A DNA stretch of 64,000 bases. It comes from a virus (taxonomy: Duplodnaviria; Heunggongvirae; Uroviricota; Caudoviricetes). The stretch lies in the IMG/VR virus record IMGVR_UViG_2684623127_000007, one strand, 5' to 3'. Below are positions 36,930-42,900 of the stretch, one piece after another. The position numbers were made by a program. Numbering within the stretch: position 1 is the first letter of the stretch; each line of letters begins with the position of its first letter.

Positions 36930-39900
36930 TCATCCTCTCCGGATAAGGCACGGGCGTATTCTGCCAGTGTTTTCTTGTTGGTTGCTGCACCATCCTCTTC
37001 CTGCAGGCTCGCCAGCAGTGCACTGAGATCCAGCTGCCAGCGGGAAATACTGATGCGCAGCGCCGCCAGCGCATAAACGAAGCAGTCGAGCGCCTCATTG
37101 CGTCGCTTTTTGCTGTCCCACAGTATTTTTTTCCTGCCATCCACCCATTTTTCGACCTGCTCTTCAGCAGTCAGTTGCTGCGCTTCGGTAAGATCAAAAA
37201 TATCCGGGTTATTCGGGAAGTGAACGGCACCGGGAAGCGGTTCATCCCCTTCCGGCGTCAGTGTGAAGCGGTTATAAATCTGCTCTTTCGCGGTATCCGT
37301 ACCGATTTCGGTAAGGTAAACCCCGTTTTTGTTTCGCTTACGTGGCATGCTGGCCACCGGCTTTCCGTAGACGGATGCCCCTTTAATGGGGATCACCCGG
37401 AACAGCCCATGTTTTTTCGAGCGTTCATACACAATGGTCGGGTCAATCCCGCCAGTATCCCAGCAGATACGGGATACCGACATTTCTGCACCATTCCGGC
37501 GGGTATAGGTTTTATTGATGGCCTCATCCACACGCAGCAGCGTCTGTTCATCGTCGTGGCGGCCCATAATAATCTGCCGGTCAATCAGCCAGCTTTCCTC
37601 ACCCGGCCCCCATCCCCATACGCGCATTTCGTAGCGGTCCAGCTGGGAGTCGATACCGGCGGTCAGGTAAGCCACACGATCAGGAACGGGCGCTGAATAA
37701 TACTCTTTCCGCTCTGCCATCACTTCAGCATCCGGACGTTCGCCGATTTTCGCTTCCCACGTCTCACCGAGCGTGGTGTTCACGAAGGTTTTACGTTTTC
37801 CCGTATCCCCTTTCGTCTTCATCCAGTCTTTGACAATCTGCACCCAGGTGGTGAACGGGCTGTACGCCGTCCAGATGTGAAAGGTCACACTGTCAGGCGG
37901 TTCAATCTCTTCACCGGATGACGAAAACCAGAGAATGCCATCACGGGTCCAGATCCCGGTCTTTTCGCAGATATAACGGGCATCAGTAAAGTCCAGCTCC
38001 TGCTGGCGGATGACGCAGGCATTATGCTCGCAGAGATAAAACACGCTGGAGGGGTCATCCGGCGTCCATTTGAGGCCAAACGGCGTCTCTTTGTCGCCAA
38101 ATTTAAGATACTGCTCCTCCCCGCAGTGCGGGCAGGCAACATGAAAACGCATAAAATGCGGGGATTCACTGGCTGCACGCTCAATCTGGCAGGTGCCTCT
38201 CACTTTGGGCGTGGAGCCACGGATGGACTTTGGCCAGACCGAGCCTTCAATACGCTTGTCACCCAGGAACGTCGGAGAGCCTTCCTGTTCAATATCCTCA
38301 TCAAAGGCAGCAAGTTCATCATAACCCGCCACATCAACCGACTTTTCACGGTAGTTTTTTGCCGCTTTACCGCCCAGGCACCAGAAGCCACGACCATTGG
38401 TGAAACGCTTCATAGTGAGCGTGTTATCCCGGTGCTTTTTGCCATACCACGGGGCCAGAGACAGCAGCGACGGAATATCGCGGATGGTAGGCTCGACGTG
38501 GGTTTTCATAAAGTTCTCGGCATCACCATCCGTCGGCAACCAGATAAGGGTGTTACGCTGCTTATGCTCTATGAAGTAGGCATAAACACCCAGCAGCATT
38601 TTTGAATAACCAACACGGGCAGACTTCACCACATTCACCTCGCGGATGTAGTCGCTGCCCATCGCATTCATGATAGCCCGCTGAAAGGGTAGTGTTTCCC
38701 AGCGCCCTTCCTGGTATGCGGATTCTTTCGGGAGATAGTAACTGGCATCCGCCCATTCAACGGCAGTCTGTGGCTCCGGCCTGAACAGGGCTCGCAGCCC
38801 GGCGCGTACATCACGCCGCAGAATATCAATCTGACTGTTCGATATATTCACTCAGCAACCCCGGTATCAGTTCATCCAGCGCGGCTGCTTTGTTCATGGC
38901 TTTGATAATATCCCGTTTCAGGAAATCAACATGTCGGTTTTCCAGTTCCGGAAAACGCCGCTGTACTGAGAGAGGGATCCCGTCAAGAATACTGGCAATT
39001 TCACCTGCGATCCGTGACAGCACGAAAGTACAGAATGCGGTTTCCACCACTTCTGCGGAGTCTCTGGCATTCTTCAGCTCCTGGGCGTCAGCCTGCGCAC
39101 GCGTAAGTCGATGGCGTTCGTACTCAATAGTCCCAGGCTGGAGATCTGCCTCGCTGGCAGCCCTGTAATCCTCAACCTCTTTACGGAGTTTTTCATTTTC
39201 GATATCAGCTTCCCTCTGCGCATACCACTGAATTGCCGTGGCGGTATCAAATACAGATTCAACGCCCTTACCACCTCCGGAGACGCAAGGGAGCCCCTGA
39301 GACTGCCAGCGTTCAATCGTTCGCGGATCCACGTTGAAAATTTCGGCAAGTTTCTTTTTATTAACCTTCATGAAACAGTCTCACAACAAATACAGGGTCC
39401 GACATGAAAGTGCCCGAAAATGACTTTTTCAGGCGTTTTCATGTCGGACCTTTACGGATTCGATATTAGAAAAAACAAATAGTTATGTTCGAGAAGTACC
39501 GACATGATTTTCCCCGGAAAATTTTCATAAATAGCGAAAACCCGCGAGGTCGCCGCCCCGTAACCGGTCGGATCGCCGGAAAGGACCCGCAAAATGATAA
39601 TAATTATCATCTACATGTCACAACGTGCATCTACGCCATCAAACCACGTCAAATAATCAATTATGACGCAGGTATCGTATTAATTGATCTGCATCAAATT
39701 AACGTAAAAGCAACTTCAGATAATACAAATCAGCAACACTGAATATGGGGCAACATTATGTCATCAAAGAACAGAACCCGCAGAACAACAACCCGCAACA
39801 TCCGATTTCCAAACCAGATGATTGAACAAATTAACATCGCTCTTGATCTGAAAGGTTCAGGAAATTTTTCAGCGTGGGTTATTGAAGCCTGCAGAAGAAG

Positions 39901-42900
39901 ATTAATTAATGAAAAATATTCTCAATTTGTACCCAACAAAGACAAACACGACCAGAGAACCTGTTCAGACAGGTTTACTTAAACGACTTATATATGACAC
40001 AAAAAGCGACCACTAAAGTCGCTTTTTCTTATGGTAACAGGCAATAACGCTCTCAGATATTTTTTAGCATTTTTTTGACCGCGCGTTTCCGGACGTATTC
40101 TGTTCTCCTGTCCCTTTATATCGTCGGAATACCCGCCGCTCTTCAAATCCCATTCCCAACTCAGAATGTAGTCTGTTGACCGCTTGTTTTATTTCGGTCA
40201 GGTTCACCGGTGAAACCGGAGTCCGGCGCGCCTTACGCAAACACTCTGCTCGTTTCTGTGCCGCCACTTTTCTTTTCTGGTCATCACTTAGCTGTACCAT
40301 CACTTTTGCCCATCGTTCAGCTGCTCTCCGGTACAGTCCTTTTTTCTCCAGACATTCTGCCAGGTGATCATGTAGCATAAGTAACCTCCGTTTATCTACA
40401 GACTGCCATCCTGAATTTACCGTCCTTAATAAGACAACAATAAAAAACTAATTATATAAAAACAATAAAAATAATATACAAAAAAACTAAACAACAAAGA
40501 AAAGCAAATCATATCTGGCATTTTAATTGAAAGAGCAATTACCGAACAAAAGACGCTGACTATATACTCAAAACCAAACAACAATTCTGCCAATCAGGTA
40601 TCATGGCAACACACGGAATTACCATGTTTTTGCCTTCTCTGCCCATACAATACGGGCATATACTTCATACTCTATTGTAATATTTCTATCCATGTGCCCC
40701 ACTCCATTTACCTGTAAATAATATTCAAAATATTTATCACAGAAATCGTTTTTGGCCATGAACTGAGCACACTATAAAGTCCGGAACTGACTCTTTGTTA
40801 AATTACCTTAACGTTACCAGTAACACCTTCGTAACAAAACATCACGGTATACACTGGGTACGGATATATTCCTGTGCTCCTTCCAGTTGCTTCTGCATTG
40901 CCATCAGCCGTTCTCTGAGGATGAAATAATCCCGTTCAGCGGCTTCTGCCAGTCGGGGACCGGTTGCATTATCCACGCCGGAGGTGATGGGGGCTTTACG
41001 CAAGGAGCCTGGACAGTTGGCGTTGATGCGCAGGCGCTTACGACCAGCGGCAACATCAGCACGCAGAGTTTCATTTTCAGCTCTCGCATCGGCTAACTCC
41101 CTCGAGTATTTTGCATCGAGCGCAGCAACATCACGCTGGCGCACCTGCATGTCAGTAATGGTGGCATTCGCCTGTTCCAGCTCTCTGGCTTTTTTATCGC
41201 GCTGCGCTTTGTAGGTGAGCGCGTTGTCACGGTAATGGTTTGTTGCCAGCCACAGCGCACCATAGCCAACCGCCAGGACAATAATCACCACACACAGAAC
41301 ACGGTTCATCTCTCTTTCACCCCACCAGTCCCGATAACGTCAGGACTCGCCAGGCGGTGGAAAAGAAAATGGCAACCAGCATGACTAAAAATGAAATGCC
41401 GACAAGTACACAGAGGCTCTTCACCAGCGTTATGAGTTTATCTGATATCATTAGCCACCCCATCAATCCGCCTTTGTTATTTTCCCTTTGCCTGTATCAG
41501 CCAGGACAAAATCAATCAGCATATTCGCTTCATTTACCAGCGTACGGATTTTTGATACATGCGCGGCTTTAACCTGTTTCCACTCATTCAGCCCGGTAGC
41601 AAACACACTGGCAATGTTTTTATCCCGTTTCATGTCAGCACAAGCCTGGTTGAGTTCTTCCATCACGCTCATTTTACGGGGATTAACGACAAAACCCTTC
41701 GTCCAGTACTCGTAAAGAACATCGTCGCACTCTTCCTGATACCGGATGACCTTATCGCGGATTTCGGGTTTTACTTTGTTGGGATTAATGGTTTGTAGCC
41801 AGCCGGCAAGTTTTCGAAGTGGCATGGACACCATATTGCGTTGTTTCCCATCCTCAGCAACCATAACGATTTCCGTTATAGTTGACGCAAAACGCTGTCT
41901 TAACTTAGCCAACTGTGATTGCCAGGCCAGCCCCATCCCCGCAACGACAGGTTTCATGGGAACGTATGGTTCGCCATTATGGTTAACTACATAAAGAGAG
42001 TTGCCGTGAAACGGCACGGCCATCATATTCATCGGTTATTTCCTTTTAGTGATGAACCTTGTCTCACAGGAATCCAGCCCACAGAAAGGCACCGACAGCC
42101 AAACCGGTATCCTCAAGGGTCATCCTGAAAGGTTCTGTGTTGTGAGATGCGCGTGAGATGCGCAGAAATGACAAAGGCATCATTACGGTGCCTGAGTGTT
42201 AAACAACTGTTTTGACTTTATTCACTTACATTTTGCCAATTTGCAGGATTTCGTGTTATCCGTCCATGTAAGCAAACCTCATTTTTCAGCAAAATATTCT
42301 GCTTATCTGTCGATTCCCCAGCACGCCAGCGCGCTCTCCTGGTCACGACGGGATACCTGACCGTAACAGTTATTTGAGCGAATACGGCAGTCCCTGCCAC
42401 CGTCCTTAATCCACCAGCGAATCGCTTCGCAGGCACCTTTTCGATCTCCTGCATTAATCCGTCTGTAAAACGTCGACGGGAAACACTTACCGGGGCCAAT
42501 GTTGTACGGACAGAATGACGCGATCCCCGCTTTCTGGGGTTCGGTCAGCGGCACTCTGATGTTTTTCTCCACCCATGCCAGCGCCTTATCACGCTCAATG
42601 GCGTTAACCCGGTCGCATTTTTCCTTCGACAGCTTCATGCCAGGAATAACAGGCTTACCATCCCCCCGGGTGGCTCCACGGCAGATGGTCCAGATACCCG
42701 CACCATCACGGTATGCTGTGGTGTGGTTACCTTCCTTTTCATCCAGAAACTGGTCGAGGATTTCAGGCGCAGACGCCCCTGCACCAATCAGCGCCAGAAC
42801 GGCAGCCGACAGGCCGTATCTGATTTTTGCGTTCATGGATATTTATCAGGGTTTATCGATTTCAAATCCCTGGATATGTTAAGTCTTCAGGCCAGCGGTG

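Follow-up and report, generated by a model that had tools for sequence, protein, structure and literature searches.

A probable group-1 pch gene (pchB allele) carried as cargo beside the cos site of a lambda-like prophage

Introduction

Enterohaemorrhagic Escherichia coli (EHEC) has five perC homologues, of which pchA, pchB, and pchC form group 1, and Iyoda and Watanabe (2004) are described as having found these three genes necessary for full expression of ler, LEE (the enterocyte effacement locus), and espA, and for adherence (PMC6265319 and PMC4456613). Pch proteins have no recognisable DNA-binding motif, activate the LEE1 promoter only when it is silenced by H-NS/StpA/Hha/YdgT, lower H-NS occupancy at LEE1 in vivo, and exclude H-NS from LEE1 DNA in vitro (PMC4764244). 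PerC of enteropathogenic E. coli (EPEC) belongs to the same Pfam family and likewise activates LEE1/ler, although the dependence of LEE on Pch in EHEC is much stricter than its dependence on PerC in EPEC (PMC4764244). The two also differ in setting, since PerC is plasmid-borne and shares an operon with perA and perB, whereas Pch is solitary prophage cargo with a longer basic C-terminal tail. Here we describe a 104-aa Pch protein, and the genes around it, in one strand of a 64,000-nt stretch of viral DNA (IMG/VR record IMGVR_UViG_2684623127_000007, Caudoviricetes; hereafter, the window).

Expression of group-1 pch genes is embedded in host regulation. LrhA activates pchA and pchB (Honda 2009, as cited in PMC4456613 and PMC13012123), butyrate acts on pch through Lrp (PMC4456613), and glutamine and serine signal via NtrC, partly through the LrhA-Pch pathway (PMC13012123). 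Translation of pchA is activated by the small RNA (sRNA) DicF, which opens a structure formed by the Shine-Dalgarno (SD) and anti-SD sequences (PMC7873438, PMC7769764), and the SOS response raises the group-1 pch genes (PMC6265319).

Comparable phage cargo genes are the morons bor of lambda and borD of prophage DLP12. Like pch, they occupy the slot between Rz and cos at the right end of the packaged genome and are self-contained, with their own terminator and atypical base composition. In contrast to pch, which points with late transcription and whose product regulates a distant pathogenicity island, borD points against late transcription, and the bor/borD product is a surface protein.

Results

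The 104-aa protein and its relatives

The initial annotation had placed a PerC-like protein of 104 aa and a convergent 74-aa open reading frame (ORF) beside cos, and the ORF list contained both genes in that arrangement (Table 1), with a lambda-type cosN close by. The 104-aa protein (pI 10.3 from computed properties) matched the Pfam PerC profile, PF06069, from end to end, covering positions 1-89 of the 90 in the profile, and scored 148.8 bits (cut-off 22.6; E=5.4e-44). The group-1 loci of O157:H7 strain Sakai, i.e., pchA in prophage Sp4, pchB in Sp11, and pchC in Sp14, served as references. The similarity to PerC and Pch on which the initial annotation depended was borne out, as the coding sequence is nucleotide-identical, and the protein 100% identical, to Sakai PchB (ECs_2182), and a four-way alignment showed no differences from Sakai pchB over ~490 bp 5' of the start codon. 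PchA and PchC each differ from the window's Pch by a single residue (L6V and V58M, respectively), and the founding member of the family, PerC of EPEC E2348/69 (pEAF plasmid pMAR2, NC_011603.1), is 47.1% identical to it over residues 2-88 (tblastn, E=1e-17).

Many O157:H7 genomes contain, at 100% identity, a 1521-bp region comprising cos, the 74-aa gene, pch, and the end of Rz. In identical DNA, RefSeq annotates pch as "PerC family transcriptional regulator" (WP_001302717.1), an accession annotated in O157 and O111 genomes. A sequence search of the PDB with Pch gave no matches, and since a word-indexed protein search returned just 16 close relatives, including several frameshift variants, structure prediction for Pch relied on a shallow alignment.

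The gene therefore shows the features by which group-1 Pch was recognised: 104 aa, near-identity to PchA, PchB, and PchC, a lambdoid prophage as carrier, and a position between the lysis genes and cos. The order Rz - pch - DUF3950 gene - cos - Nu1 is also found in Sp11 and Sp14. Very probably, the 104-aa ORF represents a functional pch gene of group 1 (pchB allele), carried as cargo of a lambda-like prophage beside a conserved backbone gene of the DUF3950 family, and the sequence holds nothing against its identity as pchB. Two observations weigh on the other side: a promoter scan of positions 40379-40841 found no consensus sigma-70-like site, such sites being fewer than expected by chance, and LEE lies outside the window, so that the target of Pch is not demonstrable there.

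Signals around pch

The two convergent genes are separated by 81 bp, which contain a perfect 10-nt inverted repeat, AAAAAGCGAC-7 nt-GTCGCTTTTT. The hairpin folded significantly more stably than shuffled sequences on both strands, at -12.3 kcal/mol (z=-3.3) on the plus strand and at -17.3 kcal/mol (z=-2.1) on the minus strand, and A/T runs on both sides of it yield U-tracts on both strands. The hairpin is placed to end both convergent transcripts and provides pch with the downstream terminator of its own that is typical of a moron.

On its other side, pch had been described as having a 460-bp AT-rich upstream region. Indeed, 463 bp separate the pch start from the Rz stop (40379-40841), and their GC content is 33%, against 49.8% for the window, with a minimum of 27% over 40375-40599. 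However, a candidate 46-codon ORF occupies part of this region, so the AT-rich spacer proper is reduced to 240 bp. The candidate ORF matched phrog_2157 end to end (E=1.1e-37) and was intact in all seven pch cassette variants compared; it has no SD sequence, and substitutions among the cassettes are almost all non-synonymous. Just 5' of the SD sequence of pch, an AT-rich segment of ~100 bp takes one form in pchB and another in pchA and pchC, and the window has the pchB form. The SD sequence itself, GGAGG, is invariant among the window, pchA, pchB, and pchC.

The leader and early coding sequence of pch (201 nt) folded no more stably than shuffled sequences (z=+0.33), so the published SD/anti-SD structure was not reproduced from energy alone. 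A search of 39300-41000 against Rfam (E<=1) found no known RNA family, the only matches being noise from eukaryotic miRNA and snoRNA models on the inverted repeat of the cosB-like region. Elsewhere in the window, a DicF-like sRNA was detected at 59414-59464 (+), just upstream of the dicB region (RF00039, E=1e-7; its 43.5 bits lie below the gathering score of 48). The first 24 nt of this RNA show one difference from K-12 DicF. Given that DicF reportedly stimulates translation of pchA, sRNA and target would share a prophage. RNAduplex predicted an interaction between the DicF-like RNA and the pch mRNA no better than that of shuffled sRNA (37/300), and hence the DicF-pch link comes from the literature only.

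In a second group of RNA genes, AgvB, an anti-GcvB sRNA (+; 56.6 bits, just at the gathering score), directly abuts STnc100 (-; 175 bits) at 45599-45868 (Rfam), with two tRNA genes nearby at 45981-46210, downstream of the Q region.

Distribution of the pch cassette

Of 5426 complete E. coli genomes, 672 carried the 777-bp pch cassette, at one to five copies each (median 3), and the serogroups carrying it include O157, O145, O121, O111, and others. When the 1521-bp region was used as query, part of it matched in 4623 of the 5426 genomes. The group-1 pch cassette is common in chromosomal prophages. Among phage records, it was absent from all full-length deposited genomes, and matches were limited to two short fragments that derive from induced EDL933 material. 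The full-length records in the phage collection that matched, 172 lambdoid records, share the cos-DUF3950 segment only.

A mosaic of Sp9 and Sp11

The prophage is a mosaic of Sp9 and Sp11 types at ompW, with crossovers at 22922 and about 40852. Identity to Sakai Sp9, a prophage with its integration site at ompW, is 99.2-99.9% over positions 3847-22922 and 40852-64000, and these Sp9-like ends hold the effector cluster together with the early and lysis genes. Positions 22922-43445, including the morphogenesis module that flanks pch, are 99.25% identical to Sakai Sp11. Sakai Sp9 lacks pch. Compared with it, the block from mid-J through the head genes, terminase, cos, and the DUF3950 gene to pch is of Sp11 type in place of the Sp9 original, and pch arrived with this block. 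Thus, pchB sits in Sp11 in Sakai, but in the window it belongs to an ompW-integrated, Sp9-like prophage with nleA, nleH1-2, and paa. The prophage of strain F690 has the same arrangement as the window, except that it is without the IS629 copy at 50421-51732. This insertion sequence (IS629/IS1203) lies between the hok/sok region and paa and is 100% identical to Sakai copies.

That effectors and the regulator share a prophage, as had been proposed, is upheld by the 99.2% identity of the window to annotated Sakai Sp9: espM1, nleG, espO1-2, nleF, nleH1-2, nleA, and an nleG pseudogene lie at ~6.8-18.5 kb, and paa was assigned in the same way. The Sakai annotation already pairs regulator and effectors elsewhere, with pchB beside nleG genes in Sp11 and pchC beside espJ and tccP in Sp14.

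This history raises the possibility that the present pch copy is a silent or redundant passenger, gained when the morphogenesis module of an Sp9-like prophage was replaced, and exerts little control over LEE. Its arrival with an ~18-kb Sp11-type block would suit such a role, as would the presence of up to five pch copies per genome, the reported redundancy of pch genes with PchA and PchB stressed as the main contributors (PMC13012123), and the AT-rich upstream region, which is typical of H-NS-silenced DNA (for the principle, see PMC4764244). However, the ORF, the SD sequence, and ~490 bp upstream are identical to those of Sakai pchB, which is among the two copies with a demonstrated contribution, and there is no disruption by an insertion sequence here, unlike in the rearranged neighbourhood of pchA in Sp4. 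We regard a passenger role as unlikely.

cos, terminase, and the cargo slot

The cosN site lies 175 bp from the Nu1 start and 200 bp from the convergent pair. Its 12-nt cohesive end, AGGTCGCCGCCC, is the reverse complement of the lambda cohesive end, GGGCGGCGACCT; the next 33 bases also agree with the lambda left end. Between cosN and Nu1, one of the three copies of the GGTCCGACATGA-type repeat is inverted, and two copies form a 25-nt inverted repeat. By analogy with the R sites of lambda cosB, which they resemble, these repeats may be Nu1-binding sites.

DNA homology with DLP12 covers Nu1 and cos, breaks off after 39892, and begins again at 40864 within Rz, and homology with Qin behaves likewise. 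Because homology to DLP12 is interrupted between these points, the intervening segment is an exchangeable cargo slot, which in DLP12 of K-12 holds borD-ybcV-ybcW.

Table 1. Features at and around pch in the window.
Feature	Position	Strand	Basis
pch gene (pchB allele) for a 104-aa transcriptional activator of the PerC family (probable)	40064..40378	-	PF06069; nucleotide identity to Sakai pchB
Bidirectional intrinsic-terminator hairpin, AAAAAGCGAC-7 nt-GTCGCTTTTT	40001..40027	both	Perfect 10-nt inverted repeat; RNA fold
Shine-Dalgarno GGAGG, 6 nt before pch ATG	40385..40389	-	Read from sequence
Putative pch promoter/leader region, AT-rich (31% GC), 240 bp	40379..40618	-	Composition; four-way alignment
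Candidate 46-codon ORF (orf46) upstream of pch, unannotated (phrog_2157)	40619..40759	-	Full-length profile match
74-aa DUF3950 / YlcI-YnfO family protein, basic	39758..39982	+	PF13132, NF041551, phrog_949
Variable cargo slot: 3' tail of DUF3950 gene, terminator, pch, AT-rich region, orf46	39893..40863		DLP12/Qin homology gap
cosN, 12-nt cohesive end, AGGTCGCCGCCC (reverse complement of GGGCGGCGACCT)	39547..39558		Sequence comparison
cosB-like region, three GGTCCGACATGA-type repeats, cosN to Nu1	39396..39508		Repeat search (D3, I1, I5)
Terminase small subunit Nu1	38826..39371	-	Pfam Phage_Nu1, E=4.4e-91
Rz spanin, final late gene of the backbone ahead of the pch cassette	40842..41309	-	Pfam Phage_lysis, E=1e-46
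Embedded Rz1 ORF inside Rz	40904-41089		ORF list

The convergent DUF3950 gene

The 74-aa protein matched PF13132 (DUF3950; 66.6 bits against a cut-off of 25, E=1.8e-18), NCBIfam NF041551 (YlcI_YnfO_N; 34.6 bits against a cut-off of 30), and phrog_949 (E=1.7e-31), and RefSeq lists it as "YlcI/YnfO family protein" (WP_001303940.1). Its gene lies 386 bp from Nu1 in divergent orientation. The K-12 relatives YlcI (DLP12) and YnfO (Qin) are 77% and 72% identical to it overall, with 47 of the first 49 positions invariant, and ylcI-nohD and ynfO-nohA show the same divergent arrangement, ~390 bp from the Nu1 homologue. In contrast, the tails beyond residue 49 are unrelated, and the neighbouring cargo in K-12 is borD-ybcV-ybcW or ydfO-gnsB, where the window has pch. 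In Sakai Sp9, a 228-bp gene occupies the equivalent position without pch. The 74-aa gene is thus a conserved lambdoid backbone gene that stands beside cos with or without pch.

We found no function for the DUF3950 / YlcI-YnfO family in the literature. The AlphaFold2 model of the 74-aa protein has a predicted local distance difference test (pLDDT) score of 69.5 overall and ~88 for residues 21-50, and shows an extended N-terminus, a helix at residues 19-32, a glycine turn, and a second helix at 34-56. This predicted topology is compatible with a ribbon-helix-helix monomer. Foldseek returned nothing from the PDB at E<=0.001 with the model, and a sequence search of the PDB found no relative, giving one chance match with the single sequence (E=1.1) and one with a profile. 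Of the initial description as a basic, DNA-binding-like protein, the first part stands (pI 10.6), and for the second the model weakly suggests a small DNA binder of the ribbon-helix-helix type.

Two further readings involve this gene. In the broader one, Rz, orf46, pch, the terminator, and the 74-aa DUF3950 variant would form one coherent module, mobile and exchanged among lambdoid prophages whose packaging systems differ, with orf46, the ribbon-helix-helix-like DUF3950 protein, or both helping to control pch and the DicF-like sRNA, 19 kb away, as a further input. If true, the prophage would carry a self-contained regulator-plus-effector circuit, but we consider this improbable. In the narrower one, the convergent genes would be a single regulatory module that moves together, in which the DUF3950 protein, or transcription of its gene into the shared terminator, controls pch. 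The variant of the 74-aa protein with its own C-terminal tail does follow pch in all cassettes examined, and homology to K-12 ylcI stops inside the DUF3950 gene, at about codon 45. Moreover, in E. coli A25 (2029-3588), the start codon of the DUF3950 gene marks the exact end of the conserved block that stretches from Rz across pch. An HNH endonuclease and an HK97-type terminase, not cos and Nu1, adjoin it there, so the pch-DUF3950 pair is kept across different packaging modules. Yet such control of pch is highly improbable, given that DLP12, Qin, and Sakai Sp9 have the DUF3950 gene in the same place near cos but no pch beside it, that matches to the cos- and DUF3950-containing query far outnumber those to pch and phage records share that segment only, that residues 1-49, the predicted folded part, are unchanged with or without pch, and that the literature offers no function for the family.

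Discussion

Our results support a functional pchB allele in the Rz-cos slot of this prophage. The convergent pair described in the initial annotation is confirmed and its interpretation supported, yet neither is new, as both genes are already in RefSeq. The allele is known, experimentally characterised, and found in its usual setting, and it opens no new question. That Pch activates the LEE master regulator, as the annotation stated, agrees with PMC4764244, PMC4456613, and Iyoda and Watanabe (2004) as cited there.

Activation of LEE1 and displacement of H-NS would carry over to this protein from published experiments on identical or near-identical proteins. In this model, Pch would bind the LEE1 (ler) promoter region and relieve silencing by H-NS/StpA/Hha/YdgT; Ler, once switched on, would then activate the type III secretion system of LEE together with many effectors encoded outside it. 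In the lysogen, pch would be expressed under host control by LrhA, Lrp/butyrate, NtrC, and DicF, which is possible because the gene comes with a terminator and a putative AT-rich regulatory region of its own. On SOS induction, we infer that read-through from the late operon may enter pch, and the reported rise of group-1 pch genes in the SOS response fits the orientation of the gene, which is co-directional with the late operon and downstream of Rz. Such an expression logic would be that of a moron.

The sole aspect of the locus that departs from the textbook is the occurrence of a pchB-type copy in an Sp9-like prophage with nleA, the Sakai counterpart of which has no pch. It illustrates module exchange between co-resident lambdoid prophages. 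Since most environmental signals enter the control of LEE expression in EHEC through Pch proteins, the copy number and location of pch genes are relevant to virulence potential.

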